Part shown: positions 3,695-59,711 of the stretch, piece after piece
Layout of the letters: each line of letters starts with the position of its first letter
How positions within the stretch are numbered: the stretch's first letter is position 1
From: Bacteroidota bacterium
GTDB lineage: Bacteria; Bacteroidota; Bacteroidia; Chitinophagales; Saprospiraceae
Length of the DNA: 64,000 nucleotides
Direction: 5' to 3'
NCBI GenBank assembly: GCA_020160935.1
Contig: JAIUPL010000013.1
Location: 47,710 to 111,709, forward strand
Translations under genes and position numbers: made by a program
Notes under the pieces: generated by a model
Told to the model about the DNA's origin: nothing
The model's database searches: none
The model's input: only the letters and a program-made list of their open reading frames with translations

Positions 3695-3799
3695 TATGGC
3701 GTTTGAAGAGGATTGGATTGCGTTCGAACAGGATCAGATTGCGTTCGAACAGGGCTGGATTGCATACTAACAGGTTCAGATTGCGTTCGAACAGGGCAA
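3695..3799. repeat. 21-bp tandem repeat, 5 units (core GATTGCGTTCGAACAGG)
   Basis: Units start at 3695 (degenerate), 3716, 3737, 3758 (degenerate) and 3779, an exact 21-nt period. Each unit contains the TTCGAA palindrome. Confidence 0.85.
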
Positions 3800-3870
3800 A
3801 GAAGGACGGCAGGGGGAGTGTTCGGCAGTGTTTAGAAAAGTGTGTCACTTAGGCTTTTTGTGTTTTTTTG

Positions 3871-4047
3871 GCAGCCTATAGACGCCATGCCGCCTTGTCG
3901 TCCTGGCGGGACCCGTTCACTCTACGGCGCGTAGACAGCAAATTTCCCTCGTAGAGCGGACGGGCCCCGCCAGGGTGACAAGCGCGGCATGGCGGCAGCA
4001 GGCTGCGAATATGGCGTTCGAACAGGATTGGATGGCGTTCGAACACA
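3871..4047. repeat. second, more degenerate copy of the palindrome plus 21-bp-repeat composite
   Basis: Arms 3871-3926 and 3950-4006 resemble the 3557-3690 palindrome. They are followed by the same gcgaatatggcgtt junction and two 21-bp units starting at 4010 and 4031. Confidence 0.75.
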
Positions 4048-4055
4048 CTCATAGC

Positions 4056-4128
4056 CCGTCGGGACAGCGCCTTTCAAGGCGCGCACCACAAAATAATTCA
4101 TGCGCCTTGAAAGGCGCTGTCCCGACGG
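4056..4128. repeat. perfect 27-bp-stem hairpin (19-nt loop)
   Basis: ccgtcgggacagcgcctttcaaggcgc (4056-4082) is exactly complementary to gcgccttgaaaggcgctgtcccgacgg (4102-4128). Confidence 0.9.
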
Positions 4129-4212
4129 ACTAAAGTCCATGCTACCACCACGCACAAACTTTTGATTTGCAATAAAATAAGCCGTGTTTTTTCACGGGAA
4201 TCATTTCAAAAC

Positions 4213-4220
4213 TATATTTG
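4213..4220 (+). promoter_or_regulatory. candidate Bacteroidota -7 promoter box (TATATTTG) ahead of the ABC ATPase gene
   Basis: Exact match to the TAnnTTTG consensus, 40 nt upstream of ATG 4260. There is no clean -33 TTTG. Confidence 0.3.
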
Positions 4221-4259
4221 CTTTTTTCTAATGGGGTGTGCGGCGCCCGGCATCGGAAC

Positions 4260-5525: not shown

Positions 5526-5527
5526 AT

Positions 5528-6670: not shown

Positions 6671-6675
6671 CTTTG
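6668..6675 (+). promoter_or_regulatory. candidate -7 box (TAACTTTG) ahead of hsdR, overlapping the stop codon of the membrane-protein gene
   Basis: Matches TAnnTTTG, 39 nt upstream of ATG 6714. A TTG lies at 6642-6644. Confidence 0.25.
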
Positions 6676-6713
6676 TCCAGACTCCCCTACCCTGCACGCT
6701 ACCCAATCCAGCA

Positions 6714-10049: not shown

Positions 10050-10061
10050 AGCATTTTCAAC

Positions 10062-10075
10062 GACAACATGTTGTC
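10062..10075. terminator. 14-bp perfect palindrome between convergent hsdR and the caspase gene
   Basis: gacaacatgttgtc is self-complementary. There is no U-tract, so terminator function is speculative. Confidence 0.2.
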
Positions 10076-10084
10076 TGCTCATGG

Positions 10085-43300: not shown

Positions 43301-46300
43301 GATCGAGTCATTTTCCGTGGTGGCAACATTGTATTCGTAGCCGTCGCACAGCGGCGACAGGCCGTCGATGCACTCGGAGTATGTGCCGTCTGCTTCCGGC
43401 ATGCGGCGCACTGTAATTTCAAAATTATTGCAGTTGTCATGCGAACCCTGGTCGAAGGCCGTAGCCGGTACCCAGGTTACACCTCCAAACTGGCAGTCTT
43501 CCGTTGGCTCGTAGCAGTCTGTTGGATCATCCACACCGATGGCAACCGTTGTGAACTGTGTGCAAGTGGCTACTGGAGCCACGTCGTCTACTACTGTCAG
43601 CCAGAACGAAATCTGGTTGGTGTTGCCGCACACGTCTTCTGCCATGTACATCACCTGGTGGTGACCGATTGGCAGACATGGTGTGATGCCGTAGCGACCC
43701 AGTGTGTCACAATCCCAGAAGTTGTTGCCCGGGAAGGTCGACAGCGTGTTGCCGTTGATGTTGTACGTGCCGATGATTTGATCTGGCAGGTATTGGTCGT
43801 ACACCACTACCATGGCGCTGATAGAAGCCGTTGCAGAGCAAGCATCTTCTACGATGACGTCCGGCAGGTTCACCGTTGCGCAGCACTGGCTTGGGTTGGT
43901 CGAAACCGTCATGTCGCCAGGGGTAGCGATGGCCGGGCCTTCGTTGTCCACCACTTTGATCAACTGGTCGTGTTCGATGAACGTGTTCGTGCACCAGTCC
44001 AGTACTGTCCAGTGGCGCAGGATTTTGAATGTGCCCGGGCATACCTGGATGCGCGTGTCTTCTTTCTGGGCACCCAGGTTGCACAGACCTTCAGACTGAA
44101 TCTGGCAGTTGCCATTGTAGGTGATGATTTCGTACACGCCGTCCGCGTCGTTGCCATCAACGGTCGGTACACCTGTCACGCATGGTGAGGTGCTCGCAGT
44201 TTGGCCGCAGCCAGCGCATTCGATCGTGATGTCTTCCGGGAAGTTCACTTCGTCCAGGTCGTAGGGCTCCAGGTAGAACACCTGTGTGCACTGTGCAGAG
44301 TTACCCCAGGAATCTTTCGCTGTCCAGGTGCGTTCGATGCGGCTCACACCACATGCGCCACCATCGATGAACACGTCTTTTTTGTACAGGTTCGCGCCTG
44401 GTGCTGCAGGGTTTGTCACGATTGTAGTGATCGGGCCTTCGCAGCCATCCACCGCTACCGGTGCAGGTGTCAGGATCGAGCCGTTCAGGATGCCGTCTTT
44501 GTCGGCGCAGGTGTATGTGCAGGCATCGTCCGTGTTAGATGTACATGGGCATTGCAGCACCGGCGGCAGCTTGTCTTCCACCAGAATCGTACCCCAGCAA
44601 GAGTTGCCGGAAGGAATATGTACAACGCGCACAGCGTACGTATGGTGTACATCCGAAGGGCCCAGGATGCCTGGCTGCCAGGGGCCGTTACCCAAAGGCA
44701 GTGTCCGGTCGAGTTGCACCATGTAATCATCATAGCAGAGGTAAGTGCCTTCCAGAATATCATCCGGGTTCAACTCCAGGCTGCATGACTCATCGAGTGT
44801 AATGTGCAAATTGTCGTTACAAACCAGGTTGGAAGGAGTATTTACAACCGTAAACACCCGGCTAACCGAAGCAATACAACCTACATTCGGAGGCGCCAGC
44901 AAGCCTGCCGGGTTGCCTGCATCAAACTGGAATACCAGGGTATAGTTTCCAGCACTCAAGGTGCTAAAGTCCAGCGTAGTAACCCAATTATTGCTGTTTA
45001 CAGGCGTCTCAACCGTTGGAATGGGGTTTCCATTGAGGAAGAACTGTCCTGTACCATCAATGTTCGCGCCGGCTGTTCCGGAGAATACGCCATCAGCAGA
45101 ATTTGCACAGAAAACGCCTTCCGGACCAGTAATAACCGGATCAGGATAGTAGCAGGTATTGGAAATGGTCAGCGGGCTGTTCGGGAAGTAAACACTGGTA
45201 GCCGTCAGGGAGTAACCTACGCCATCCAGGTGTACACCTGGCAATACATAGATCACCTGTCCGCCACCCACGTTCACTTGTGTAAACGCAGTACCTGGCG
45301 CATACGGAGCATTGGTATTCGGATTGATCAGGGTTGTGCTTTGTACCACCCAGAGTTGGCCAGGGTTGGTCGGGCCGATCACCACTTCTTCCGAGAAGCG
45401 GCCGTTACCAAGGCAAGTACATGGGTCTGCAATATCCGGTCCACCGGAGTTGCCTATGGCAGGAGGCGTGCAGGCTGCAGAAGCAATCACATTAACCGTA
45501 CTGGTGCAGGTGCTGGTAAGGTTGGCTGGGTCTGTAACCGTCAGTGTCACCGTTACCGGGCCTACATTGGCACAGGTAAAGGAGTTGGGTGCAACGCTCA
45601 AATTGACGATGCTACAGTTGTCGGAACTGCCATTATTGATATTGGCAGCCGTGACGGAGCCCGTACCGCCCGCGTTCAGATTCAGATTGAAACTTGGTAC
45701 GCACTGTGCGCTCGGTGGCTGGTTGTCGACCACCTGCACAAAGTAACTGCAGGAAGAAGCGCCCGAGCCATCCGTGATGCGCCATTCCACTTCATAACGG
45801 CCCACTGCAAGGTTGACGCTGTTGGAAGCGGCCGGTGCGAATGCATTGTATGGGCCAGTTGGCACATTGGAGGCATCTACCGAACGATAGCGGAATTCCA
45901 GGGTGCCGCTGCCACAAACGCTGCTGGTTATTGGCTGTGTCAGCGTTACCGTAGCGTTGCACACGCCAGCGGCAGCATTGGTTGTAATATTGCCGGGGCA
46001 GGTAATTACCGGCAGGGCATCGTCGTTGGTGATGGTACCTATACCATCGAGTTGTGCGCCACCACCGCTGAAGGTGACGTTGCGGCCATTAGCGGTCAGG
46101 CTACCCAAACGTACAATAAACGTTTCGTTAGGCTCGATCGCACAATCGCCAATAATTGGAACGGAAACCGTCTTGGATGTTTGTCCAGGCGTGAAGGTCT
46201 GCGAACCGTTGGTAAGCGTATAGTCGTTATTAGCCGTAGTGGCCGTACCATCTACAGTAAAATTATTCAGGTCTACGTTGGCATCTACAGGATTGTTCAT

Positions 46301-49300
46301 GTTAATCGTAAATGCCAGGTTGGTCGTACCGCCGTCGCCTTCTGTGATCGTCGGACTGCTGATGGTAATTATTGCAGCATCGTCATTCGTGATCGTACCA
46401 ATACCCAGGCCGTCGAGAATGCTTCCACCTACCGGCATGGACAGGCTCATTTCCACCGTTTCATTCAACTCGACCGTCAGGTCGCCATTAACGACTACCG
46501 TAACCGTCTGGCTCAGGGCGCCACCGGCAGTAAAGTTGATGGTACCTCCGGCAAAAGCCTGATAGTCAGAACCGGAGGTAGCCGTGCCGCCAGTGATGGC
46601 ATAATTCACCGAACTGGCGTTGGCATTTACCGTGCGGGAAATAGTGAAGGTCAGGTTGGTGGTACCGGCATTGCCTTCCATCACACTGACGTCGTTGATG
46701 CTAAATTGTGTATTAACGATTTCGATGGCGTAATCTTCCACTTCACCGGTCGTTTGCAGGCCCGTCGGTACTGCCGCAACAGCCCCCTGGGTGAAGCGGA
46801 AACGTGCAAAACTGTTGCCTACTGTAGCACCACTTGGTACCGGAATGGACAAATTGTTATTGCCTGCAACAACAGGAACCTGGTTGAATACCAGATCGCC
46901 TGCGTCGGAGAAATTACCATTGAGATTGAAGTCGACCCAACCATTCAGGAAACCATTGATGGAGGCATTGACCGTGATGTTGGCAGCGGTACCTGTGACC
47001 AAAACGCTTGGTAGCGTTACGCCGTCGTCGTCGTCACCTTCAGCGTCTGTATCGTCGCCATTGGCCAAAGCACCAGGCTGGCCGTCGGCATCGCCGTCAA
47101 CAGAAGCACCCAAGTGCACGGTAAGGGAGGTACTATGGCGTGCTCCATTGCTGGCCAGCAGGGTGCCGTAGGAGTCGGGCGCATCGCCCCAATCGACCTC
47201 GTCGTTGACAATGAGTCCACGTTGTGGGGAACCAGATACCGTTACACCGGCCGGAGCGCCGGTAATAGCACCCAATGTCACCACAAAGTCTTCATTTGCT
47301 TCCACGAAATTGTCGCCGTTCACAAGCACCGTAATGGTTTGTGGTTCGTTCATGGTACCGGCAAATGTCAGTATGGCGTCGTTATCGACATAGTCATTGT
47401 TGGCGGTTGTAGCAAGACCGTCGCTGGTCGTGTAGGGCAATGTAAAACCGCCTTGTACAGGGTTGTTCAACGTAGCAGTAAACACAAACGGGGTAGTACC
47501 TGTATTGCCCTCGTCTTGCATCAAAATAGAGGAAGGCGTGAGGGTTACCACTGCATTATCATCATTCAAGATGGTACCGGTACCGGCCGACAAGCCCAGA
47601 GCGACGTTGCGACCGCTCGCACTGAGGGAGCCAATGCTCACATTGTAAAATTCGTTGGCTTCAACCTTGTTGTCATCGTTAATCGTAACCGATACCGACT
47701 GCGAGGTGGTGGTTCCGGCAGGGAATGTTACCGTTTGCGAAGCAATCCCATTGTAGTCGTTGTCGGCAGTGCTCGCCGTATTGTTGGCCGTAGAGAATTG
47801 CACCGTTACAGGAACGTCTACGGGGTTGGAGAGCGTTACGGTAAATATTTGTGGAGTAAGTGCCTCCGCCTGGCTTACACTGCCTGCCAGTGCCACCACT
47901 GCTCCATCATCGTTTGTAATGGTGCCTGTTTGCGGAGAACCGGTAACAGTAATAGCCGCTATCTGTACTGCTGAAGTACCGCCTACCGTTGCTGCCAGCA
48001 TAGTGGTGAATGTCTCGTCCAATTCCACTTTATTATCCGGCGTAGAGTTGACCACAAATGTCTGCGTTTCATTGGCGGCTCCGCTAAATGTCAGCGTACC
48101 ATCATTATCAGTGTAATCATTATCAGCAAGGGTGGCGGTACCATCATTGGTATTGTAGGTTATTGTAAAGCCATCTTGCACTGCTTTATCAATATTTGCA
48201 GAGAAAGTGAAAGGAATGCCCCCTTCTGCATGTGAAGTTCCACCGGAAAAGGTGAGTGTTGCTACGTCATCATTGGTGATGGTACCCGTACCCGGGCTGG
48301 CGCCGATACCGCCGTTTACCGGGTTGCTCAGGGTCAGAAGAATCGTTTCATTGTTTTCCACTACAAGGTCGCCATTTACCGTTACAGAAACGGTTTGAGT
48401 CAGGGGGCCGCCGGCTGTAAAGTTGATCGTACCGGTAGGATTGGAAACATAGTCGGTACCCAGCGTGGCCGTACCTGCCGAAACAGTGTAATCCACCGAG
48501 GATGCAGTAGTGTTGGTGGTGCGGGTAATTGTAAAGGTCAGCGTCGTTGTGCCGGCGTTGCCCTCTATCACGGATGGATTGTCGACCGAGAACTGATTGC
48601 TGACGATGTTGGTGCGGTAATCCTCCACCTCGCCATCGGCAGCGGGACCGCTGTTCGACAGGCCGCCAGCAGAACTGAAGCGGAAACGCAGGAAGGAAGA
48701 GCCCACCACAGCCCCGGAGGGTACGTTGAACGTCAGCACATTGTTGCCTGCGACGAGGGATACATTATTGAAGATTTTCTCTCCGGCATCACTCAGTACG
48801 CGGTTCCAGTTGAAATCCATAAAGGCGTCCAGTTTACCTGGCTGGGAAGCATTTACCGTGATGGTAGCCGTTGTACCAGTTACAAAAACACCAGGCAGTG
48901 TTACACCGTCTTCATCGTCGCCGTCGGCATCCGTGTCATCGCCATTGGCCAGGTTGGAATGTGTACCACCTGTGCCCTGACCGTCAGGGTCGCCGTCGAC
49001 TGAGGCGCCGAGTTGGAAGCCCAGAACCGTATTGTGGCGTGCACCATTATTGAAAGCGATTGTTGGCAGGGAATCGGGACCGTCACCCCAGTCCACTTCG
49101 TCGTTTGTGATGGTACCTGTTTGCGGGGAGCCCGCAGCATTGATGAAAGCCCCCAGCGTGGTAGCACTGATACTACCCAGGGCCACTGTGAAGGTTTCGT
49201 TCGCTTCTACCTTGGAGTCGCCATTTACCAGTACGGTAATGGTTTTGGCTTCACCCGGAGTGCCGGCAAATGACAGGCTGGCATCATTGTCGAGATAATC

Positions 49301-51298
49301 ATTGTCGGCAGTAGTGGCAGTACCGTCATTGGTAGTATAGGCTACAGAAAAACCGCCCTGCACCGCATTGTTCAGCGTAGCAGTAAAGACGCGGGGAGTT
49401 GTTCCTGTATTGCCTTCGTTTGCAGCGCCGCCGCCAGTAAGCGTAACTGTGGCCGCATCGTCGTTGACGATCGTGGCCGTGGGTGTGCCCGCTGTTGTAA
49501 TAGCAGCCCCCACAAAAGCACCAGTTACTGCACCCAGGGCGACTGAAAAGGTTTCATCGGGTTCCACTTTGGTATCGCCGTTTACCAATACAGTAAAGGT
49601 TTTGGTTTCGCCCGCAGTACCCGTAAATGTCAGGCTGCCATCGTTGTCTGCATAATCATTGTCAGCAGTAGTGGCCGTACCGTCGTTGGTGGTGTATGCT
49701 ACTGTAAAACCACCCTGTACTGCATTGTTCAAAGTAGCAGTAAAGGTATAGGAGGTAGTACCTGCATTGCCTTCATTCTGGGCAATACCACCACTGAGCG
49801 TAACCGTAGCGTTGTCGTCGTTGGTGATGGTGCCGGTCTGTGGCGAACCAGCAGTAGTAATGGAGCCACCTAGGGTTGTACCCGATATGGCGCCCAACGC
49901 TACCGTAAAGTTTTCATCGGGTTCTACTTTGGTATCGCCATGCACCAGTACCGTGATAGTTTTGGTTTCGCTGGCAGTCCCTGTAAAAAACAATGAGGCA
50001 TCGTTGTCCACATAATCGTTATCAGCAGTAGTAGCCGTACCATTATTAGTAGTATAGTCAACATTGAATCCACCCTGCACGGGGTTGTTCAAGGTGGCTG
50101 TGAAAGTATAAACCGTATTACCAACATTGCCTTCATTCTGAGCAATGCCGCCGCTGAGGGTTACCGTGGCGTTGTCATCATTGTTAATGGTGCCTGTTCC
50201 TGAAGCATCCGTGATGACTACGCCACCCGGAGCGCCGCTCAGCACGACGGTAAAGGCTTCATTGGCTTCCACAGCAAGGTCGCCATTCACCAGCACTGTC
50301 ACGGTTTGTGTCAGCGAGCCGCCGGCTGTAAACGACACCGTTCCGCCGGAAATAGCCGTAAAGTCGGAAGGCGAAGTTGCCGTACCGTCTGCGGTGTTCA
50401 CTGTAAGGCTAAAGGCCTCCGTGTTGCTGCTGCGGGTTACTGTGAAATTAAAGTTAGTCGTACCTGCATTGCCTTCTGAGAGGGTAACGTCATCGATGGT
50501 AACCGTAGTAGGTGTCCTGAAACCGAAATCGACCGTCAGATTGGTATTATTGTTTCCATCGCCGTCGGTAGTGGGCTCTCCTCCGTAACTCAGGGTAACA
50601 GCAGCAGTGGCCACGCCGAAACCTGCCACCGGGTCACCATTGTCATCATTGTCAATATCTGTATCCGGGTCGGGAGCGCCGCCAAGGGGGCTGCTAATAA
50701 GTCCGGCCATCAGGGTATTGTCGTATAGTGCGCCGCCGGGCAGGAAATTTGAAGACGTAACTTCAAGGATGTAGTTACCCGGGCAAAGGCCTTGAAAATT
50801 ATAAAATCCCAGGGCCGCAGCCGGTGTGGTCAGCGTAATTGTGATCGCAAGTGGAGAACCGTCCGCTCCAGTAAGCACCCCGTCGCCATTGTCCGCGTAT
50901 ATTGCAACCGCTACATTTCCCACACCCACGTCGCCTGCGTCGAAGATGCCGTTCAGGTTGTTATCCTTAAACACGCGATCACCGATTGAGAGGGTACTGA
51001 ACGGGGTGAGCGTAGGGTTGGAAGCCCCGGCAATATCAGGATCATCCGTTTGTACGGTCGTAAAGTTGGACCCACTTACATTGCTCTGGTTGATAAGGTT
51101 CGTGTTTGAACTAAAGCCGCCATTCGGGCATGCATTGGCATTTACATCCACTTCATAGGTGATGCAAATGGTTTTGCCTGCCGGGAGGGTGAATCCGGGC
51201 GTTGGGAATGTTTGCGCCTGCAGCCCTGTGCAAAGGAAGGCAGAAAAAACGAAGAGGGCGGAAAACCGATTTTCAATTCTGTAAAGAATATTTTCCAT
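40361..51298 (-). CDS. giant (3645 aa) T9SS-secreted adhesin-like protein with multiple Calx-beta repeats, two GEVED-type modules, HYR-like and Cys-rich domains, a dockerin-like segment and a C-terminal sorting domain
   Basis: Signal peptide; SdrD-B-like GDRVFKDNNLNG; at least 12 Calx-beta-like units (DDNATVTL...NEGN.G...F.FT.TL...V...F.V.Y.T.DGTAT...DY...); GDDTDADGDDEDGVTLP...GEVEDY occurs twice; HYR-like PVITCPGNITTNAAAGVCNATV; dockerin-like SDANRSGSITTFDIVEFRKLILG; C-terminal TLNVFDETGRLIW...GMMYYTVET. Confidence 0.9.
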   Translation of the reverse strand: MENILYRIENRFSALFVFSAFLCTGLQAQTFPTPGFTLPAGKTICITYEVDVNANACPNGGFSSNTNLINQSNVSGSNFTTVQTDDPDIAGASNPTLTPFSTLSIGDRVFKDNNLNGIFDAGDVGVGNVAVAIYADNGDGVLTGADGSPLAITITLTTPAAALGFYNFQGLCPGNYILEVTSSNFLPGGALYDNTLMAGLISSPLGGAPDPDTDIDNDDNGDPVAGFGVATAAVTLSYGGEPTTDGDGNNNTNLTVDFGFRTPTTVTIDDVTLSEGNAGTTNFNFTVTRSSNTEAFSLTVNTADGTATSPSDFTAISGGTVSFTAGGSLTQTVTVLVNGDLAVEANEAFTVVLSGAPGGVVITDASGTGTINNDDNATVTLSGGIAQNEGNVGNTVYTFTATLNNPVQGGFNVDYTTNNGTATTADNDYVDNDASLFFTGTASETKTITVLVHGDTKVEPDENFTVALGAISGTTLGGSITTAGSPQTGTITNDDNATVTLSGGIAQNEGNAGTTSYTFTATLNNAVQGGFTVAYTTNDGTATTADNDYADNDGSLTFTGTAGETKTFTVLVNGDTKVEPDETFSVALGAVTGAFVGAAITTAGTPTATIVNDDAATVTLTGGGAANEGNTGTTPRVFTATLNNAVQGGFSVAYTTNDGTATTADNDYLDNDASLSFAGTPGEAKTITVLVNGDSKVEANETFTVALGSISATTLGAFINAAGSPQTGTITNDEVDWGDGPDSLPTIAFNNGARHNTVLGFQLGASVDGDPDGQGTGGTHSNLANGDDTDADGDDEDGVTLPGVFVTGTTATITVNASQPGKLDAFMDFNWNRVLSDAGEKIFNNVSLVAGNNVLTFNVPSGAVVGSSFLRFRFSSAGGLSNSGPAADGEVEDYRTNIVSNQFSVDNPSVIEGNAGTTTLTFTITRTTNTTASSVDYTVSAGTATLGTDYVSNPTGTINFTAGGPLTQTVSVTVNGDLVVENNETILLTLSNPVNGGIGASPGTGTITNDDVATLTFSGGTSHAEGGIPFTFSANIDKAVQDGFTITYNTNDGTATLADNDYTDNDGTLTFSGAANETQTFVVNSTPDNKVELDETFTTMLAATVGGTSAVQIAAITVTGSPQTGTITNDDGAVVALAGSVSQAEALTPQIFTVTLSNPVDVPVTVQFSTANNTASTADNDYNGIASQTVTFPAGTTTSQSVSVTINDDNKVEANEFYNVSIGSLSASGRNVALGLSAGTGTILNDDNAVVTLTPSSILMQDEGNTGTTPFVFTATLNNPVQGGFTLPYTTSDGLATTANNDYVDNDAILTFAGTMNEPQTITVLVNGDNFVEANEDFVVTLGAITGAPAGVTVSGSPQRGLIVNDEVDWGDAPDSYGTLLASNGARHSTSLTVHLGASVDGDADGQPGALANGDDTDAEGDDDDGVTLPSVLVTGTAANITVNASINGFLNGWVDFNLNGNFSDAGDLVFNQVPVVAGNNNLSIPVPSGATVGNSFARFRFTQGAVAAVPTGLQTTGEVEDYAIEIVNTQFSINDVSVMEGNAGTTNLTFTISRTVNANASSVNYAITGGTATSGSDYQAFAGGTINFTAGGALSQTVTVVVNGDLTVELNETVEMSLSMPVGGSILDGLGIGTITNDDAAIITISSPTITEGDGGTTNLAFTINMNNPVDANVDLNNFTVDGTATTANNDYTLTNGSQTFTPGQTSKTVSVPIIGDCAIEPNETFIVRLGSLTANGRNVTFSGGGAQLDGIGTITNDDALPVITCPGNITTNAAAGVCNATVTLTQPITSSVCGSGTLEFRYRSVDASNVPTGPYNAFAPAASNSVNLAVGRYEVEWRITDGSGASSCSYFVQVVDNQPPSAQCVPSFNLNLNAGGTGSVTAANINNGSSDNCSIVNLSVAPNSFTCANVGPVTVTLTVTDPANLTSTCTSTVNVIASAACTPPAIGNSGGPDIADPCTCLGNGRFSEEVVIGPTNPGQLWVVQSTTLINPNTNAPYAPGTAFTQVNVGGGQVIYVLPGVHLDGVGYSLTATSVYFPNSPLTISNTCYYPDPVITGPEGVFCANSADGVFSGTAGANIDGTGQFFLNGNPIPTVETPVNSNNWVTTLDFSTLSAGNYTLVFQFDAGNPAGLLAPPNVGCIASVSRVFTVVNTPSNLVCNDNLHITLDESCSLELNPDDILEGTYLCYDDYMVQLDRTLPLGNGPWQPGILGPSDVHHTYAVRVVHIPSGNSCWGTILVEDKLPPVLQCPCTSNTDDACTYTCADKDGILNGSILTPAPVAVDGCEGPITTIVTNPAAPGANLYKKDVFIDGGACGVSRIERTWTAKDSWGNSAQCTQVFYLEPYDLDEVNFPEDITIECAGCGQTASTSPCVTGVPTVDGNDADGVYEIITYNGNCQIQSEGLCNLGAQKEDTRIQVCPGTFKILRHWTVLDWCTNTFIEHDQLIKVVDNEGPAIATPGDMTVSTNPSQCCATVNLPDVIVEDACSATASISAMVVVYDQYLPDQIIGTYNINGNTLSTFPGNNFWDCDTLGRYGITPCLPIGHHQVMYMAEDVCGNTNQISFWLTVVDDVAPVATCTQFTTVAIGVDDPTDCYEPTEDCQFGGVTWVPATAFDQGSHDNCNNFEITVRRMPEADGTYSECIDGLSPLCDGYEYNVATTENDSIKFYCCEVGTTQTVILRVYQLDINGNRDYYRNPDGSPLTDPDGAIQYIYNECMINVEVQDKIKPTCQAPAPVTINCENFEPSLWAYGYPSVSDNCCLDNTPPTSVDPQGQSGIPSGTAAIPGVCGATQKVYYNNFLNANFDTTCNRGVIIRRFTAWDCQGFSSSCTQRITVTNQQAYTVQFPADKLVNCVTTPDFGKPVITNDEGCELIGTSYNDVIFTVVPDACYKIERTWTIINWCTYLPDNACTPVTRNPVNPNTGLAPEKTYNSTTENCLTYKQVVKIIDQTPPTITCAEIDTCDYSTNNPRYWNDGDNWWDNSTMQHDLCEKSTNIAVTAEDFCDTLSPTGGLRFRYLLFLDLDGDGIMETVVSSADIFTRPLGQIRYNNYLAPNYHGGSLQLLDAVAGNQTYRFDIEQTANGARVIWRNAAGSVIDPELAHGRHKIKWIAEDGCGNEAVCEKTFEIRDCKPPVVACANVNINLMIGGMATLWASDFFLYGDDNCTPDPILEQKLAVIRADENPGNQFPTDLPQSIVVTCADQGTMVPVQVWLQDAAGNADFCIAYVNVQANIVGCEVTNASVAGKLATETLEGVEDATVELAISSASNPQSLQTQYSDNTGSFMFADAIPPAGNYTLTPTKDDNPLNGVTTYDLVLISKHILGLEPLSSPYKMIASDANRSGSITTFDIVEFRKLILGIYTHLPNNTSWRFVDKDFAFTDPSNPFQEPFPENISAQNVMWDHLADDFVSVKIGDVNNTVIANSLFTAEERASSTLLFDVDDRTLEAGEVVSVAFKGSETVQGYQFTLHLADLEVLDISGSGAIKSTNFGVFEHAITTSVDGPDNEFTITIRAAKAGRLSEMLGVSGSITKAEAYSLANERMDIALRFSSPSGMTTVGVGFELYQNEPNPFVNKTMIGFHLPEASEATLNVFDETGRLIWTRSGSFLKGYNTFAVDRQLLPSPGMMYYTVETSTDRATRKMIQSR
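49109..50188 (-). repeat. three tandem ~360-bp (120-aa) Calx-beta repeat units within the giant gene
   Basis: Protein residues 371-490, 491-609 and 610-729 (hand-counted) are near-identical in pattern: I(N/T)NDDNATVTLSGGIAQNEGN...TTAGSPQTGT. Confidence 0.8.
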
Positions 51299-51385: not shown

Positions 51386-54300
51386 TTATTTTGAACCGGA
51401 TGTAGCGCCTTTTTGCGACAGGTATGCCCAGTCGTAGACATGCTCCGAGTGGATGTTTCGGAAAATACTGTTTCCAGGCAACACTGGGTTTACCATAGCC
51501 GTAGGATGGGTGATGGTTGTGCAGGCAGCCTGGTTAAAGTTGACCGCACCACCAGCCGCAGCACCAGAATTCAAACTTGGTGGCGACATAGCAGTGGTAG
51601 GCGGCATATTGCCTTTCATATCCCACATGGTGGCGAGGGTAGTGCCAGGGCCTTGCAGGTTGACGGTGGTTCCGGAAGCAGTAGACCGCGCACGGAAATG
51701 CGCAAAGAAGGTTTGTGGTCCCGTGCCGGAAATACTGACCGTGTTACTCACTACATTGGCACATACAGTGGCAGTCTCGCCTCCCCCCCCGCTGCCGGAG
51801 GTGATATCGATACAATACCAGGAGTCGCCTGCGATGGCGACGTTGTTGCTCAGAAGGTTTATATTCAGGTTGGCGGCATTCCGGGCATTGGCATATATAC
51901 CGCGACCGTTCACGTCGATTCCAGCAATCGTGTTATTGCTGACTTCCGCTTTACCCGAGGCGGAGTTAGTAGCCCACACCACGATGCCGTCGCCAAAGCA
52001 GTTGCAGCCAGGTGTTTCCGGGTCGCCGCCCATAATACAATCGCTGCATGAATTCGGGCCTGTGATCATGTTCAGGTTGATACGAGCCTGAAAAACACTG
52101 CTGTTATTGCCCTGTACCAGAATAGCGCTGCCGCCTGCCAGGGTCATGGTATTGCGGTTTACGTTGATGTCCATGGTGGAAGTACCAGCCGGTATAATTT
52201 CCACACCGGACATAAATTTTTTAGTGTCTTTGTTAAACTCTGTATCGGTTACATTTACATTGAAAGTACCCGCAGTGGCGCTGGCACGCACGCCCTGGGA
52301 TTTGAGACGGCGGAAAAAACAGTTATCGACGGTGAGTGAGTTGGTAGTTGTGTTGGAGGTGGTTACATGCAGGCCTTTTTCACCAAATGTTTTGTCGAAG
52401 TTGTCGGAAAAAGTGCAGTTTGTTACAGTCAGGTTAAGAGCACCATTGGTAACAGCATTGATAATTTCCACCGTTTCATCCGATGCAAAGGTAAAGGTGG
52501 AGTTATTGAACAAGCAGGTACCTGTCAATTCCCGTATTTTCATACAGCCTTCGAATTGTTCGTTGTTGCCACAGTTGGTAAAACTACAGCCTTCCACCGT
52601 TAGATTTGAAATGTTGTTTGCATTCAGTCCCTGCTCTGCAGTACCATTCACATCCACATTGTTCAATACAATCGTCGTAACCGTGCTAAAGTACAAGGCC
52701 CCATTACACGCAGTATTTGTGAGTGCATCACATGTGCCAGCGCCGCCTGCATCGACGGTATTGGCATTTGTAAATGTGATGTTTTTCAGGGTGATATTGC
52801 TAGCCGAAACAAAATTGACCCCTCTGTTCGCAATATTCTGGATGGTTCCACCCGATCCATTGGTTGTGCTCGTTCCGTTGATGGTAAAACTTCCGGTTGT
52901 ACTGGTTACATCTATACCATAGCCTGCGCCGTTGGCGGAAACGCTGGTAAGCACAATGCCAAGAACTGTATTGTTGATGTCTATGGCTACCTGGTTGCCG
53001 GAGTTGATGGTACCGTCGGTGATATTCAGGGTACCAGCACCATCGGCCAGTATGGCGGTGCCCCCGCCGCTACGGGCCACATCTACATCTCCGAGGTTTT
53101 TAGGGCTAGAACTGTTAATAATAGAAATTGCGGTCCCAGTTCCGCCGGTTACATCAACGAAGTCGAACGTGATAGCGCTCAAACCGGCGTTCACCATATT
53201 CATTTCGAAGGCAAGGCCATTGCCGGATTTAGTGATGTTGTTGCCAGTGCCGGTTACGTTTACCGTACCACTTCCTGTGGCGCTGAAACCTTTACCCGTG
53301 GTCGTGCTAATCACCAGTCCGCCGCCGCTGAAGGTGAGTGTGGCACCACCATTCGTCACCAGGTTTACGGCCGTGTTGGCGCCCGTACTTAATGACTTGG
53401 ATGCTCCGGAAAAAGTGATGGTACCGCCGCCGCAGTTTTGCACCTGGATGCCCATTCCTGTAGAGGTGATATTTCCGGAGAAGGTAATATTGTTGGAATC
53501 GTGGTTGTCGATATCTACTGCGAAGCCTGCATTGGTGGAAATGGCGCCGCTGGAACTAAACGTTACGGTGCCGTCTTTGATATACACACCTGCGGTGGTG
53601 GGGTTGGTGATGGTACCGCCGCTTACAGTGAAGGTACCGGTACAATTGTTCAGATCAATGCCGTATGTGCCGCCATTGGTAGAAACGCTTGGGAAAGTGA
53701 CCGTCAGGGCGCCGCCATTTGAGGCATCAAAACCACCACCTGTGGTGTTGTTGATGCTCACCTCGCTAATCGTAAGGGTGCCGACAGAGTTCATAGCCGT
53801 ATTGTTCATGGCAAAACCTGAGCAAGCACCTACATCGAAGCCGCGAAGGGTGTTGTTCATGGCCATCAATACGCCGTCGCCTGCAGCATTGGTAATCACA
53901 GGGCGGGTGCCGTTGATATTGGGCAAGGTTTTGCTGTTGGCAGCCAGTGCAAAAGGTAGTACGCCCGACAGGTTGGCTGCGCCGGTATGGCCTTCGCCAA
54001 AGAGGCGTTCGCCGTCCTGCAACACGATACCGCCAGTATAGTTGGTGCCCGTATTTTCGATGTAAATGACACTGCCTGCTGCTGCGGAACCTGCGTTAAA
54101 ATCTGCCAGCGTTTTGAACGGAGAAGTCAGTCGGCCGTCGCTGGTAGCAGCCACGGAGGAGTTATCAATAAACCAGATCAGGTTGCTCACCGTGAAGGTG
54201 ATCACCGATGCATCGGTGGTCGGACAGGGCGCCGCAAGGGGAGTGGCGTCGTTCAGCGTGTAGGTGTAGGTATCTGTACCTGTGAAACCCGGCGGCGGCG

Positions 54301-54772
54301 AATACATGAAACTGCCATCCGCACTAAGCATAATGGAGCCGCCCTGTGTAGTAGTGAAAGTACCAGCCGTTACAGTGGCCGCAGTAAGGTCATCGTCAAA
54401 ATCATTCGCTTTGACACCCAGTGCCGCCGAAATATTGATGCCGACATTGCCAGTGCAGGCGTATGCGTCGGGCACGGCCAACGGGCTTGATTTAAATGAG
54501 CCGGGTACGAACGTGGTGCGCGGATCGGGCACCACATTCAGTTGTGTGTTGTTGCCGGAAGCGCCCCCTGTATTTTGAATGGTTACATTATACCTGATCC
54601 GATCGCCTGGCTCGGCCTGGCCGGCAGTGCCATTGTCGATAATGATCACGTCCGTTTGAGTAGGAACGATCACCTGTGCCTGCATCAAAGGCGTTGCTAA
54701 TCCTCCGATGCAAATTAAAAGCATCAATCCAAGTCGAACAAGTATGGGAAATCGTGTATATGATTGTTTCAT
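51386..54772 (-). CDS. secreted 1128-aa protein: DUF11-like N-domain, cadherin/Ig-like segment and long parallel-beta-helix-like repeats
   Basis: Signal peptide ...GGLATPLMQAQ. GDRIRYNVTIQNTGG (DUF11-like). VKANDFDDD...DGSFMYSPPPGFTGTDTYTYTL. This is followed by ~800 aa of G/T/N-rich imperfect repeats (ITFSGNITSTG, TFTVSGGTITN, NITLKNITFTN). I see no T9SS CTD. Confidence 0.8.
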   Translation of the reverse strand: MKQSYTRFPILVRLGLMLLICIGGLATPLMQAQVIVPTQTDVIIIDNGTAGQAEPGDRIRYNVTIQNTGGASGNNTQLNVVPDPRTTFVPGSFKSSPLAVPDAYACTGNVGINISAALGVKANDFDDDLTAATVTAGTFTTTQGGSIMLSADGSFMYSPPPGFTGTDTYTYTLNDATPLAAPCPTTDASVITFTVSNLIWFIDNSSVAATSDGRLTSPFKTLADFNAGSAAAGSVIYIENTGTNYTGGIVLQDGERLFGEGHTGAANLSGVLPFALAANSKTLPNINGTRPVITNAAGDGVLMAMNNTLRGFDVGACSGFAMNNTAMNSVGTLTISEVSINNTTGGGFDASNGGALTVTFPSVSTNGGTYGIDLNNCTGTFTVSGGTITNPTTAGVYIKDGTVTFSSSGAISTNAGFAVDIDNHDSNNITFSGNITSTGMGIQVQNCGGGTITFSGASKSLSTGANTAVNLVTNGGATLTFSGGGLVISTTTGKGFSATGSGTVNVTGTGNNITKSGNGLAFEMNMVNAGLSAITFDFVDVTGGTGTAISIINSSSPKNLGDVDVARSGGGTAILADGAGTLNITDGTINSGNQVAIDINNTVLGIVLTSVSANGAGYGIDVTSTTGSFTINGTSTTNGSGGTIQNIANRGVNFVSASNITLKNITFTNANTVDAGGAGTCDALTNTACNGALYFSTVTTIVLNNVDVNGTAEQGLNANNISNLTVEGCSFTNCGNNEQFEGCMKIRELTGTCLFNNSTFTFASDETVEIINAVTNGALNLTVTNCTFSDNFDKTFGEKGLHVTTSNTTTNSLTVDNCFFRRLKSQGVRASATAGTFNVNVTDTEFNKDTKKFMSGVEIIPAGTSTMDINVNRNTMTLAGGSAILVQGNNSSVFQARINLNMITGPNSCSDCIMGGDPETPGCNCFGDGIVVWATNSASGKAEVSNNTIAGIDVNGRGIYANARNAANLNINLLSNNVAIAGDSWYCIDITSGSGGGGETATVCANVVSNTVSISGTGPQTFFAHFRARSTASGTTVNLQGPGTTLATMWDMKGNMPPTTAMSPPSLNSGAAAGGAVNFNQAACTTITHPTAMVNPVLPGNSIFRNIHSEHVYDWAYLSQKGATSGSK

Positions 54773-55350: not shown

Positions 55351-56004
55351 ATGGAAAGAAGGACTTTTGTCCAGACCGGGGTAGCAGGTGCACTGGGTTT
55401 TGTATTTCAACCCAATGTTTCACCGTTATTAAGCCCCGTTAGAAACGACATTCACTTGTGGTTCAATCAGTTCTGCAAGTTAATTCAGGCCCGGCGATAC
55501 TGGTCGCCCAGGGTACTAACCTCCGATGATTTGCATGCTAAAGAAGCACTGGATGCCTACTTCTCCCAACGATTTTTTCAAAGGGAGAGCAATTCGATCT
55601 ATGTTCATTCCGGTGCAAAATCGTCCTACTTTTTCTATCCGGTTTACCTGCGCCATGCGCAAGTCGGTATCACCGATGTATTATTACCGGTTTTTATGCG
55701 TCAGCAAAATCAGTCCTGGCAACGCATCGGCACATTCACCGGTTTCCAGATTGAAGCGATGGCGCGGGCTGCTGTAGCCCTTCATGAGCAAGGATTGAAT
55801 GTAGCCGACTTGCTACTTCCCGTATCAGTTGGCAAACCTGATGGCGCTGCATTTCAATACGAAACCCGCATGGGCAGCGTTTCAATTTCTACCCTCGTGC
55901 AACAAAAAGCAAGTACCTCTATCCGCGTGCAACAAGATGCTGGAAAACCCGTTCTGGAGATGTCTTTCCAGTCCCAACATTGTTTGTACGCCGAGCTCAC
56001 GTAA
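55351..56004 (+). CDS. hypothetical protein with Tat-like signal
   Basis: MERRTFVQTGVAGALGFVF has a twin-arginine RRxF motif plus a hydrophobic stretch. No recognisable domain. Confidence 0.55.
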   Translation: MERRTFVQTGVAGALGFVFQPNVSPLLSPVRNDIHLWFNQFCKLIQARRYWSPRVLTSDDLHAKEALDAYFSQRFFQRESNSIYVHSGAKSSYFFYPVYLRHAQVGITDVLLPVFMRQQNQSWQRIGTFTGFQIEAMARAAVALHEQGLNVADLLLPVSVGKPDGAAFQYETRMGSVSISTLVQQKASTSIRVQQDAGKPVLEMSFQSQHCLYAELT

Positions 56005-56101: not shown

Positions 56102-56608
56102 ATGGCGGAACCATTTTTGTCCGAAATTCGAATTTTCAGTTTCGGCTTTGCTCCACGAGGCTGGGCACTCTGCAACGGGCAGTTGTTGCCTATCAATCAA
56201 AACCAGGGCCTTTTCTCTCTATTAGGTACCACGTTTGGCGGCGACGGCCGCGTAAATTTCGGCTTGCCCAACCTGCAGGGGCGCACGCCGATGCATGTTG
56301 GAAGTGGACACACCCTGGGTGAACGCGGCGGCGAACAGGCGCACACGTTGTCTATCAGCGAGCTACCACAACACACGCACCTGGGCCGTGCCAGTACCAA
56401 TACGGCAACGCGCACATCCATTGGCATGAACAACTACCCATCCGACAGTTCTCCCAACAATGTGTACTCCCCTCCCGGCAACCTTGTAGCCATGCGAGCG
56501 GGCTCTGTTACCAACACCGGCGGCAGTCAGGCGCACCTGAACATGCAGCCGTTCCTGGTCCTGAATTTCTCGATTGCATTGCAGGGGATTTTCCCAAGCC
56601 AGAGTTAA
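56102..56608 (+). CDS. phage-tail-collar domain protein (MdpB/COG4675-like), paralogue 1
   Basis: PFLSEIRIFSFGFAPRGWALCNGQLLPINQNQGLFSLLGTTFGGDGRVNFGLPNLQGRTPMH. HxH motif QHTH. C-terminal GGSQAHLNMQPFLVLNFSIALQGIFPS. Confidence 0.88.
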   Translation: MAEPFLSEIRIFSFGFAPRGWALCNGQLLPINQNQGLFSLLGTTFGGDGRVNFGLPNLQGRTPMHVGSGHTLGERGGEQAHTLSISELPQHTHLGRASTNTATRTSIGMNNYPSDSSPNNVYSPPGNLVAMRAGSVTNTGGSQAHLNMQPFLVLNFSIALQGIFPSQS

Positions 56609-56685
56609 ACCGGGCGCCGGGCTTACACATTTCTTATCCTATTCATTTCATCAAAGTGCAAAACACTTTGTAAAACGCATACCAA

Positions 56686-57189
56686 ATGGCACAACCTTAT
56701 GTAGGCGAAATCCGTATGTTCGCCGGCAACTTCGCTCCTGCGGGATGGATGTTCTGCGAGGGGCAATTGCTTCCTATATCCGAATACGAAACCTTGTTCA
56801 ACCTGATCGGCACCACTTATGGCGGCGACGGCCAGAGTACTTTTGCCTTGCCTGATCTGCGCGGGCGACTACCGCTTCACTTTGGCAGCGGTTTCACGTT
56901 GGCAGAAACGGGCGGAGCAGAGGAAATCACCCTCACTGTCAATCAAATACCTGCACACTCCCACCCTATGCTGGCGAGTGCGAACTCAGCCGCCAATACG
57001 CCTGCTTCCAATAATTTGTACGCTGTTCTCAGCGGCGCCGATCTATATATAGACTCGGACAGCTCGAACAATTTTAATACAGCGATGGTGACCTCTACAG
57101 GCGGAAGCCAGCCACATACCAACTTCATGCCTTATCTGTGCGTCGATTTTATTATCTCGCTCTTTGGCATTTTCCCTTCGCAGACATAG
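56686..57189 (+). CDS. phage-tail-collar domain protein (MdpB-like), paralogue 2
   Basis: PYVGEIRMFAGNFAPAGWMFCEGQLLPISEYETLFNLIGTTYGGDGQSTFALPDLRGRLPLH. HxH motif AHSH. GGSQPHTNFMPYLCVDFIISLFGIFPS. Confidence 0.88.
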   Translation: MAQPYVGEIRMFAGNFAPAGWMFCEGQLLPISEYETLFNLIGTTYGGDGQSTFALPDLRGRLPLHFGSGFTLAETGGAEEITLTVNQIPAHSHPMLASANSAANTPASNNLYAVLSGADLYIDSDSSNNFNTAMVTSTGGSQPHTNFMPYLCVDFIISLFGIFPSQT

Positions 57190-57238
57190 TCGAAAACCTT
57201 TGATCAACCACATTGAAAAACATTCTAAAAAATAGATC

Positions 57239-57751
57239 ATGGATCCATTTGTTGCTGAAATAAGAATATTCCCCTTCAACTTTGCTCCTACTGGCTGGGC
57301 TTGGTGCGACGGACAATTGTTGCCGCTTTCCCAGAATACCGCTCTCTTTTCGCTGCTCGGAACCACCTATGGTGGAAACGGTAAAAGCAATTTCGCTTTG
57401 CCCGACCTGCAAGGCAGAGCGCCCATGCACCCCGGACAGGGGCCCGGCCTTTCGCTGCACGACCTGGGAGAAACCGGCGGCTCCGAAACCGTATCGCTGC
57501 TGGAAAGCGAAATACCCTCGCACAACCACCTGATACGAATCGACAATGCCAACCCGGCCGAATCCAACGATCCGACCGGAAAAATAGTGAGTCGCCCCTC
57601 GCGCCCGGTATTCAGTACCACGGCGGAAGTCCAAATGTCCGACCAAATGCTCGCTCCGGCTGGTGGCGACCAGCCGCACAACAACTTGCAGCCGTATCTG
57701 ACCTTGTATTTCTGTATTGCCATGCAAGGCGTATATCCACCGCGCACTTAA
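57239..57751 (+). CDS. phage-tail-collar domain protein (MdpB-like), paralogue 3
   Basis: PFVAEIRIFPFNFAPTGWAWCDGQLLPLSQNTALFSLLGTTYGGNGKSNFALPDLQGRAPMH. HxH motif SHNH. GGDQPHNNLQPYLTLYFCIAMQGVYP. Confidence 0.88.
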   Translation: MDPFVAEIRIFPFNFAPTGWAWCDGQLLPLSQNTALFSLLGTTYGGNGKSNFALPDLQGRAPMHPGQGPGLSLHDLGETGGSETVSLLESEIPSHNHLIRIDNANPAESNDPTGKIVSRPSRPVFSTTAEVQMSDQMLAPAGGDQPHNNLQPYLTLYFCIAMQGVYPPRT

Positions 57752-57761: not shown

Positions 57762-58286
57762 ATGCAAGTGCTTGCATTTAACGATACCATTGCAGTTCGC
57801 ACAGCAGCGCCCGACGACCGGGCGCTGCTGCGCAACATTTATGGCAGCACCAGAATGTACGAACTGGAAAATACCGACTGGAACGATGCTCAAAAGGAGG
57901 CTTTTATCGATTATCAGTTTGAGGCGCAGGATACTTATTATAAACAGGTTTACCCGGATTCCGACTACGGCATCGTGCTGTATGATGGCCAGCCGGCGGG
58001 CCGCCTGTATGTGGAGCGTCATCTGATACCGGGTACTATCCGGGTCGTGGATATCGCCCTCCTGCCTGATTTCAGGAACCTGGGCATCGGAGGCTTGTTG
58101 ATCCGTCATTTGCAGGATGAAGCCTCCGCATCCGGCAAAACCTTAACCATCCATGTAGAACAATTCAATCCTGCCCTGCGGCTGTATGAACGCCTCGGCT
58201 TCCAAAAAATCAAGGAAACCCATGGGGTGTATTATTTGATGGAATGGAAGTCGCCTGCCATGGCCCACACAGCAGACGCATCCTGA
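57762..58286 (+). CDS. GNAT-family N-acetyltransferase
   Basis: ATG 57762 inside ORF 57717..58286. Acetyl-CoA motif region VVDIALLPDFRNLGIGGLLIRHL and NPALRLYERLGFQKI. Confidence 0.8.
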   Translation: MQVLAFNDTIAVRTAAPDDRALLRNIYGSTRMYELENTDWNDAQKEAFIDYQFEAQDTYYKQVYPDSDYGIVLYDGQPAGRLYVERHLIPGTIRVVDIALLPDFRNLGIGGLLIRHLQDEASASGKTLTIHVEQFNPALRLYERLGFQKIKETHGVYYLMEWKSPAMAHTADAS

Positions 58287-58385: not shown

Positions 58386-58682
58386 ATGATCGACCAACTA
58401 CAAGTTTCAGATTTTTCGCATCTGGACGGCCATACACTCCATATTCGTTTTAGCCCCGAAGTTACCCTCGAAGCACGCCTGATTGAAGTATCGACGGTAC
58501 ATGGAAATACGCCCCTCGAGCGCCATCCATTCCACCTGATACTCCAAACCCAACAAAAAGACGAATATTACCAACAGGCTATTTATACCCTCATCCATCC
58601 TGAAAAAGGAGACCTGCATTTATTTATGGTACCACTTGGAAACGACGGAAACGGCATGCGATACGAGATCGTATTTTCATGA
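58386..58682 (+). CDS. small hypothetical protein (98 aa)
   Basis: Clean ORF co-oriented in the tail-collar cluster. Ends ...LHLFMVPLGNDGNGMRYEIVFS. No family assigned with confidence. Confidence 0.5.
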   Translation: MIDQLQVSDFSHLDGHTLHIRFSPEVTLEARLIEVSTVHGNTPLERHPFHLILQTQQKDEYYQQAIYTLIHPEKGDLHLFMVPLGNDGNGMRYEIVFS

Positions 58683-58724: not shown

Positions 58725-59711
58725 ATGCATGTAGATTACAGGCTGACACTGCGTCGGTTAACCGATGCTTTGTTGCAGCCCGATGCGCCCCCGGAGCAGT
58801 GGCGACAGACTTCCGAACAATTGTTTAATTTGCTGGCAGCCGCAGCGCAGTTGGAGCCAGACATGCCGGCCCATCGTGCCGACATCTTTTTGTCGAGTGG
58901 CAAAGCCCTTGCGCCTGTTTGGGCAGCCATGTGCATCAAGGATTTTTACCGCACCCGACAATTTATTTTGGGTCTCAAGGCGGCCATTGAAACGCTTTCG
59001 GCTACCATGCCCGGTACCCGACTTCACATCCTGTATGCCGGAACCGGGCCGTTTGCACCGCTTGCACTTCCGCTTACTATCCTGTTCACCCCCGAAACCA
59101 TACAGTTTACGCTACTGGAAATCAACCCTGACAGCGTTAATATGCTGAAACAGACCTGGGCTTCTTTTTTTGCCGATTCGTATATCCGGGAAATTCTCTG
59201 TACCGACGCTACTACTTACAAAGCCAGCCAACCTGTACACATCGTCGTGAGCGAAACCATGCAGCGGGCCTTGCAGGAAGAACCCCAGGTAGCCATTACC
59301 GCCAACCTGGTGCCACAAATCGCTCCGGGCGGCATTCTGATTCCTGAAAAAATCAGCATTTCTGCGGGATTGTACAATTTTCAAAATACATTGAAAGATC
59401 AACCAGAAAAGCAGGATGCGACTCAACAAACTCCTGTGATGGATCTTTCTATGGATCAATATGCCCTGGAGTATCCAGAGATCATCGTCGACATACCTGA
59501 AGAAGTGGAAAATGGCTATACACAATTTTGCCTTTTTACGGAAATCAGGGTTTTCGGACATATCGTGCTACAAACCGGTGATTCGGGGCTTACTCAACCC
59601 AAAATACTGTTAACTGCCGGCAACAATGGCAAATTTCACGCCCGGAAGATGCGGTTTCAGTATGTTTCAGGCAGGAACCCGGGGTTTCGAACCAGTATCG
59701 ACCTCGCATAA
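58725..59711 (+). CDS. putative class I SAM-dependent methyltransferase-like protein
   Basis: LHILYAGTGPFAPLALPL resembles the glycine-rich SAM motif I, and HIVVSETMQRAL resembles the acidic post-motif of PRMT-like enzymes. Weak, motif-level only. Confidence 0.4.
   Translation: MHVDYRLTLRRLTDALLQPDAPPEQWRQTSEQLFNLLAAAAQLEPDMPAHRADIFLSSGKALAPVWAAMCIKDFYRTRQFILGLKAAIETLSATMPGTRLHILYAGTGPFAPLALPLTILFTPETIQFTLLEINPDSVNMLKQTWASFFADSYIREILCTDATTYKASQPVHIVVSETMQRALQEEPQVAITANLVPQIAPGGILIPEKISISAGLYNFQNTLKDQPEKQDATQQTPVMDLSMDQYALEYPEIIVDIPEEVENGYTQFCLFTEIRVFGHIVLQTGDSGLTQPKILLTAGNNGKFHARKMRFQYVSGRNPGFRTSIDLA

Follow-up and report, generated by a model that had tools for sequence, protein, structure and literature searches.

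Results

Three Tail-Collar Genes and Their Anatomy

The window analyzed here is a 64,000-nucleotide stretch of a Saprospiraceae genome (Bacteroidota; GenBank assembly GCA_020160935.1, contig JAIUPL010000013.1, positions 47,710 to 111,709), and the system in question is a triplet of adjacent tail-collar genes on its forward strand, encoding the proteins TcA (56102-56608, 168 residues), TcB (56686-57189, 167 residues) and TcC (57239-57751, 170 residues), which represent three positional types, or slots, A, B and C. All three score above the gathering threshold of 24 bits for PF07484, the "Phage Tail Collar Domain" (TcA, E = 1.7e-26, 92.3 bits; TcB, E = 5.8e-30, 103.5 bits; TcC, E = 5.4e-27, 94.0 bits), and weak Gp10_C matches in Pfam were also obtained for TcA and TcC. 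An alternative GTG start of TcA at 56093 would add three residues. In an alignment of 179 columns, TcB and TcC are 47% and 52% identical to TcA, respectively, and the three chains have in common the N-terminal block EIR.F..FAP.GW..C.GQLLP, the motif P-x-H-x-H and the C-terminal block GG.Q.H.N..P.L. The HxH motif reads QHTH in TcA, AHSH in TcB and SHNH in TcC. The scaffold of TcC contains a slot-specific insert of five residues, GPGLS, which is kept across slot C, so the three chains are not strictly collinear. Each chain begins at the collar, at about residue 6, with no N-terminal shaft, and inspection of the three N-termini revealed neither a signal peptide nor a hydrophobic segment.

The tail-collar motifs can be placed on solved trimeric fibers: the HxH of the Tc chains lines up with that in 8KEC (LPSHQH) and that in 9QGO (IPYHYH), their C-terminal motif aligns with the same two structures, and their collar aligns with T4 gp12. 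In the source genome there is only one other collar gene, which is differently built. It lies on contig C14 (L092:5869-7335, reverse strand) and encodes 489 residues with a collar at residues 3-57, no HxH after the collar, a weak CBM_5/12 match at 233-272 and a long C-terminal remainder.

Conservation of the A-B-C Slots

Relatives were collected by scanning one genome per prokaryotic species, which gave at least 580, and the best 80 loci were analyzed. These belong to at least seven phyla, namely Acidobacteriota, Chloroflexota, Verrucomicrobiota, Pseudomonadota (Alpha-, Beta- and Gammaproteobacteria), Bacteroidota, Actinomycetota and Gemmatimonadota. Wherever the flank suffices, the gene order A-like, B-like, C-like is fixed in 80/80 loci; the triplet is not a chance arrangement, since it recurs in every related locus with enough flanking sequence. 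A tree of 241 sequences separated into three pure clades, with support of 0.99 for slot A, 0.97 for slot B and 1.00 for slot C. Orthologues are 64-75% (TcA), 66-77% (TcB) and 63-77% (TcC) identical to the chains of the window, identity across phyla is 72-73% within a slot versus 47-51% between slots, and 24 conserved columns are slot-specific. As judged from these sequences, each slot has been retained separately since before the phyla diverged. An earlier note, made from the letters of this stretch, had described three tail-collar paralogues of 167-170 residues with shared motifs, one HxH each and no export signal, which the open reading frames (ORFs), the PF07484 matches and the alignment bear out; its question of whether the gene triplet is conserved in other genomes can be answered in the affirmative.

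Conservation is very unevenly distributed along each chain. The scaffold, formed by residues 1-95 and about 140-168, is 85-97% identical to orthologues of other phyla, and the tip of some 40 residues between them (about 100-138) is only 11-20% identical. Such a frozen scaffold carrying a hypervariable tip is, at the level of sequence, the pattern of a recognition surface. The P-x-H-x-H motif is invariant in 241/241 sequences, and no signal peptide was detected on the Tc chains of any of the 80 loci. The guanine-plus-cytosine (GC) content of the Tc genes is closely correlated with that of the flanking host DNA (r = 0.92 across a GC range of 0.33-0.73), which indicates that they are old residents and not recent imports, and that their conservation reflects selection.

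Two further features of the chains were observed. An additional histidine, H145 of TcA in the block GG.Q.H.N, is likewise invariant (241/241) and may contribute to a second putative metal site or to the same one. The N-termini are near-invariant across the 80 loci (MAEPF, MAQPY and M(A)DPF), and removal of the methionine would expose alanine on most Tc chains, alanine being the usual substrate type of RimI/RimJ-like acetyltransferases.

Among 24 genomes of the same genus, collar genes occur mostly as triplets, about eleven in number, with a spacing of about 550-590 bp, and single-copy collar genes are also present in related genomes. Some genomes carry two or three tandem cassettes, as at the loci L020, L082 and L027. 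In L082, from the same genus (G008:C69, 8483-14444), the order is A-B-C-GNAT-P217-A-B-C-DUF6916-P328; in L027, from Gemmatimonadales (1733-11030), three triplets lie within 11 kb, one of them only about 50% identical to the rest.

Natural Fusions Preserve a Count of Three Modules

A profile of the module was searched against 1.84 billion representatives, of which 67,947 cluster representatives matched, and the top matches were multi-module chains. About 30 single chains of roughly 500-600 residues contain exactly three full modules and about 50 chains of roughly 340 residues contain two. When the modules were typed with slot-specific hidden Markov models (HMMs), B-A-C was the commonest triple, and 40/46 two-module chains combined different slots; the linkers between modules have a median length of four residues. 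A second search returned 3099 relatives of one fused chain. Three two-module genes were looked up in their genomic context, and each is directly followed by exactly one single-module gene: L100 is A-B plus C in an otherwise identical cassette to that of the window, L101 is B-A plus C, and L102 is also of the two-plus-one form, its modules being typed by the slot HMMs as B-C plus C. Thus, in the forms of three single genes, two plus one, and one triple chain, the module count stays at three, with one module of each type where typing is clean.

Covariation of tip length between A, B and C is uninformative in unfused loci because all of their tips are about 45 residues long. Across 26 fused chains, a small sample, tip lengths do co-vary, for example 78/74/82 and 71/70/67. 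Metagenomes also contain giants with 5-17 collar-module matches, namely P0001 (4832 residues), P0073 (4616 residues), P0086 (5991 residues) and P0038 (3740 residues), which shows that the module has been incorporated into very large chains as well. Many chains of about 450-550 residues give six partial matches, which we read as three modules with short tips.

The natural B-A-C chain P0002 was modeled with AlphaFold2. With an alignment of 129 fused homologues, the model reached a predicted local distance difference test score (pLDDT) of 91.4 and a predicted template modeling score (pTM) of 0.86, and without an alignment the pLDDT was 29.7. Three modules of 170 residues placed independently of one another would not give a pTM as high as 0.86, and the chain is modeled as a single rigid body. 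In a Foldseek search of this model against PDB chains, fiber chains were the only significant fold matches; these were partial and of low TM score, as expected for a single-chain pseudo-trimer, and add no information on geometry.

Cassette Neighbors

Immediately downstream of TcC on the same strand lies a GNAT acetyltransferase gene (57762-58286; PF00583, E = 2e-12), a homologue of which adjoins the triplet in most of the 80 loci and is also found in the loci of the same genus. Its best NCBIfam match was RimI (TIGR01575) at 39.7 bits, below the cut-off of 86.4 bits, so by profile scores it belongs to the GNAT family (PF00583) but does not qualify as a RimI equivalog. That this enzyme acetylates the N-termini of the Tc chains is only a guess. 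The next cassette member is a small protein of 98 residues with a DUF6916 domain (58386-58682, forward strand; PF21880, E = 1.8e-21). With an iterated profile, DUF6916 was detected in 69/80 loci, 16 of which contain a second copy with a twin-arginine signal.

The cassette is followed in the window by a lineage-specific accessory gene (58725-59711, forward strand) for a 328-residue protein resembling S-adenosylmethionine (SAM)-dependent methyltransferases, with an ILYAGTGPFA motif. The SAM-binding-like motif reads LHILYAGTGPFAPLA. A weak PADLOC match to mad2 was obtained (E = 2.5e-4), and comparison with Pfam and PDB returned no match. Homologues follow the cassette in the same-genus loci L082, L085 and L086. 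The gene order in that genus is the same as in the window, with the divergent gene of a giant surface protein, then a 217-residue protein, A, B, C, GNAT, DUF6916 and the 328-residue protein.

No significant PDB match to a solved relative was obtained for either DUF6916 or the 328-residue protein. DUF6916 shows weak similarity (E = 0.08-0.26) to hydrogenase subunits that resemble ferredoxin-NADP reductase (3LRX, 3LYU, 5VJ7), in the beta-barrel region that binds FAD; this hints at a small beta-barrel. PADLOC returned no match for the Tc, GNAT and DUF6916 proteins, and thus no hint of a known defense system, and a scan for sigma-70 promoters and terminators performed no better than on shuffled sequence.

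A Giant Surface Protein Beside the Triplet

Divergent from the triplet lies the gene of an exported protein of 1128 residues (51386-54772, reverse strand) with Big_9 (E = 5.5e-9), cadherin-like and beta-helix features. Clustering of all ORFs revealed that a giant exported protein directly adjoins the triplet in 66/80 loci. These neighbors are 1000-2650 residues long, with a signal peptide and Big_9, cadherin-like and beta-helix regions, and lie upstream in 35 loci and downstream in 30. The protein of the window is 47% identical over 652 residues to the giant of another Saprospiraceae locus (L008), and its homologue is retained beside the cassette in the loci of the same genus.

Giants that end just before TcA (loci L003-L074) have a common C-terminus of the form ...N.(P/T)GGG(Y/F).GGAAC(P).P or ...SATSGFSNCSLP, in which a single cysteine stands a few residues from the end; the motif could be a site of sorting, modification or docking. 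The 1128-residue protein carries the ...GG..AAC... motif as AAAGGAVNFNQAAC, followed by about 45 extra residues.

Downstream of the beta-helix gene lies the gene of a 3645-residue adhesin (40361-51298, reverse strand) with ten Calx-beta repeats, GEVED and a weak Por_Secre_tail match, which corresponds to a C-terminal sorting domain of the type IX secretion system (T9SS). The two genes possibly belong to the same unit. Homologues stand beside the cassette in the same-genus loci L083, L084 and L085; the adhesin matches in only 13/80 distant loci, so its link to the cassette is lineage-specific.

Export Signals at Unfused and Fused Loci

Directly upstream of TcA, the window encodes a 217-residue protein (55351-56004, forward strand) with the N-terminus MERRTFVQTGVAGALGFVF, a twin-arginine motif RR-x-F-x followed by a hydrophobic stretch, which makes it a candidate export carrier by the twin-arginine translocation (Tat) route. 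Homologues occupy the same position in the Bacteroidota loci L035, L037, L069 and L076 and in the loci of the same genus, and TatC is encoded in the source genome (E = 1.7e-63). Across loci, Tat-signal ORFs are enriched near the triplets, with 43/854 within 2.5 kb versus 4/1125 farther away (p = 4e-12). Because the proteins with Tat signals do not form a single family across phyla, we dropped the idea of one conserved Tat carrier protein and kept that of a shared signal type.

In many single-chain three-module homologues, the first module is directly preceded by a Sec signal, or the chain carries a PEP-CTERM anchor, which means that in those organisms the three-module unit works outside the cell. 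Four Sec-signal fused proteins were looked up (five loci), and each directly adjoins a large surface protein: a 2475-residue protein with a T9SS sorting domain, a 1208-residue FG-GAP protein, an exported protein of at least 932 residues (beside P0002) and a 1243-residue SLH/Big_2 protein in a Gram-positive organism. No GNAT, DUF6916 or Tat-signal genes were found within 8 kb of the five Sec-signal fused loci. Since these helpers are missing where the fused chain has its own signal and the giant protein is kept, GNAT, DUF6916 and the Tat-signal protein may serve to mature or export the signal-less trimer, and would be required only where it is assembled from three separate chains that lack a signal. 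A secreted PF07484 protein has been reported in the exoproteome of Ruegeria pomeroyi (PMC4949626). The PEP-CTERM zinc exoprotein ZepA (PMC10957091) was set aside, its fold being monomeric and unrelated.

Discussion

A Probable Heterotrimeric Knob

In this study, four independent lines of evidence favor the assembly of TcA, TcB and TcC into one complex: the separate retention of the slots, natural fusions that total three modules, the rigid model of the fused chain, and the co-purification of three consecutive PF07484 proteins of the virophage DSLV2 as a 1:1:1 heterotrimer (PMC12724248). On this comparative support, which falls short of proof, we consider it quite likely that the three chains form a single 1:1:1 heterotrimer, as the earlier note had predicted. 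A shared metal site formed by the three HxH motifs is plausible, because the motif is invariant in the 241 sequences and aligned with the HxH of solved fibers. The same note had the trimer working with the downstream genes, and this holds in part, as GNAT and DUF6916 are members of the cassette; it had missed the giant exported protein, which is the most constant partner, and the Tat-signal protein upstream.

Considering these results, we propose a plausible model in which TcA, TcB and TcC would associate 1:1:1 as a single knob, folded as a knitted trimer like the fiber tips of the T4 gp12/gp37 type. In each chain, the collar scaffold would consist of the first ~95 and the last ~30 residues, a single metal ion on the pseudo-threefold axis would be coordinated by the six histidines of the three HxH motifs, and the three hypervariable tips of ~40 residues would combine into one asymmetric binding surface. 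Because the Tc chains have no signal peptide, the knob should fold in the cytoplasm, where the GNAT and DUF6916 proteins of the cassette may mature or chaperone it. The Tat system moves folded, cofactor-loaded complexes. The knob would leave the cytoplasm folded, most simply by hitch-hiking through Tat on the Tat-signal protein of the cassette, here the 217-residue protein, a step suggested by the pattern at about ten fused loci that we put forward tentatively and regard as rather doubtful. Outside the cell, the knob would act as a ligand-recognition module together with the neighboring giant beta-helix/Ig-repeat surface protein; we regard such an extracellular role with the giant protein as evenly balanced. 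Taken together, an A-B-C knob with cassette helpers, export and surface recognition with the giant protein is, with reasonable probability, the best overall explanation. A bolder form would make the cassette the separate-part cellular counterpart of a phage tail fiber, in which a metal-loaded A-B-C knob is folded in the cytoplasm with GNAT and DUF6916, exported by Tat and used as an exchangeable tip for giant adhesins in at least seven phyla, while the Sec-fused lineages have lost helpers that they no longer need; in that complete form we hold it to be unlikely.

Alternative Explanations

Several observations weigh against the proposed knob and its export. Slot calls in distant fusions are noisy, and BBC, BCB and AAC combinations also occur. 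The link between the putative knob and the giant protein is drawn from gene neighborhood. A Tat-signal ORF was detected in only 33/56 loci with full flanks, in unrelated families, and the fused locus L096, whose chain is signal-less, has neither GNAT nor DUF6916 in the examined range. Moreover, the tandem genes 10, 11 and 12 of phage T4 are paralogues whose C-terminal domains are related, and each of their products forms a homotrimer; a row of paralogues is thus not in itself evidence of a heteromer. This precedent, together with the weak Gp10_C matches of TcA and TcC, leads to the alternative that the chains form separate homotrimers A3, B3 and C3, acting one after another or next to each other as T4 gp10, gp11 and gp12 do, or used as alternative binding tips. 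All solved tail-collar fibers among the PDB matches are homotrimers, every Tc chain has its own complete HxH and C-terminal motif, and single-copy collar genes do exist in related genomes. Yet homotrimers would leave unexplained why the module count stays constant on fusion and why two-module chains with such short linkers so regularly pair different slots; they are also at odds with the modeling of a three-module chain as one rigid body, and independent homotrimers would need no fixed 1:1:1 set of slots, although 80/80 loci have one. For these reasons, we regard separate homotrimers as distinctly unlikely and prefer the heterotrimer.

A further alternative is that the collar proteins act inside the cell, either as substrates of the GNAT or methyltransferase-like enzymes or as a cytoplasmic factor for making the giant protein. 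The lack of signal peptides on the Tc chains throughout the 80 loci would fit this, as would a cytoplasmic GNAT that is nearly always present and is most like RimI, combined with strongly conserved MA(E/Q/D)P(F/Y) N-termini; in addition, tail-collar proteins in hydroxylase/sulfotransferase operons have been predicted to be enzyme substrates (Iyer et al., PMC2938197). However, an enzyme substrate could still be exported afterwards, and calling the chains substrates does not say what they do. The fused homologues with Sec signals or PEP-CTERM anchors are extracytoplasmic, the pairing of an invariant scaffold with a hypervariable tip is typical of an outward-facing recognition surface, and Tat-signal genes are enriched in the cassette, so a purely intracellular role seems quite improbable. 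The triplet could also be read as the relic of a decaying prophage or tailocin that serves no purpose in the cell, given that the domain is phage-derived and its best PHROG matches are tail proteins. Against this, the neighbors are GNAT, DUF6916, an AMP-binding enzyme, DinB, DUF4230 and adhesins, the frames are intact, the scaffold is conserved at ~90% across phyla, and the Tc proteins start at the collar with no shaft; the annotation of the window shows no phage, capsid or other viral genes near the triplet. We therefore rejected the remnant reading, which is hardly credible in view of the gene order in 80 loci, the scaffold conservation, the host-matched GC content and the non-phage neighbors.

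Significance

COG4675/MdpB proteins are very common in bacteria, and one large subgroup of them now emerges as a fixed three-slot set, in which a scaffold unusually conserved across phyla is combined with a hypervariable tip and, in 66/80 loci, with a giant surface protein alongside. We found no paper describing this bacterial cassette, and the literature returned under the name "MdpB" consisted of dental-monomer papers only. The cassette is widespread and non-viral and apparently undescribed, and the heterotrimer principle is already known from DSLV2. Cultivable carriers include Flavobacterium phragmitis, Spirosoma luteum, Chiayiivirga flava and Mesorhizobium. If the heterotrimer is true, it would represent a natural route to an asymmetric binding surface on a threefold fiber fold, with relevance to the engineering of phage receptor-binding proteins and to bacterial adhesion.

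Comparison With Known Systems

The closest likeness in arrangement and domain is the virophage DSLV2 of the Aquatic Virophage 1 lineage (J Virol 2025, PMC12724248), which has three consecutive PF07484 genes for proteins of about 170-200 residues with conserved positional groups. In the DSLV2 tail, the collar lies below a variable head, and co-purification, native polyacrylamide gel electrophoresis and AlphaFold 3 (AF3) favor a 1:1:1 assembly over homotrimers (PMC12724248). In DSLV2 the tail belongs to a virus particle, on whose capsomers it has been proposed to sit, whereas the cassette is chromosomal, occurs in at least seven phyla with no virus and, unlike DSLV2, travels with GNAT, DUF6916, a Tat-signal protein and a giant surface protein.

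The fibers T4 gp12 (1OCY/5IV5), T4 gp37 (2XGF) and that of cyanophage A-1(L) (8KEC) resemble the Tc proteins in the collar sequence, the HxH after the collar and the C-terminal GG.Q.H...QPYL strand. The T4 and A-1(L) fibers are homotrimers on long, virion-anchored shafts, whereas the Tc proteins are shaftless and come in three fixed, non-identical types. Similar to the triplet, too, are the single-chain three-module proteins annotated as "microcystin-dependent protein" (COG4675/MdpB), which consist of the same modules, some of them clearly of A, B and C type (B-A-C in P0002) and some beside a giant exported protein. In contrast to the triplet, these are one polypeptide, often with Sec or PEP-CTERM signals, and their loci have no GNAT, DUF6916 or Tat genes.

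RhiB of the Rhizobium rhiABC operon (PMC13133039) and the tail-collar proteins of dioxygenase-sulfotransferase operons (PMC2938197) are likewise cellular members of PF07484, and their operons, which are not phage operons, encode modifying enzymes or exported partners. Compared by their descriptions, these systems differ from the cassette in having other neighbors and no reported fixed A-B-C triplet. Positive selection has been described among the collar paralogues of Solibacter (Challacombe et al.).

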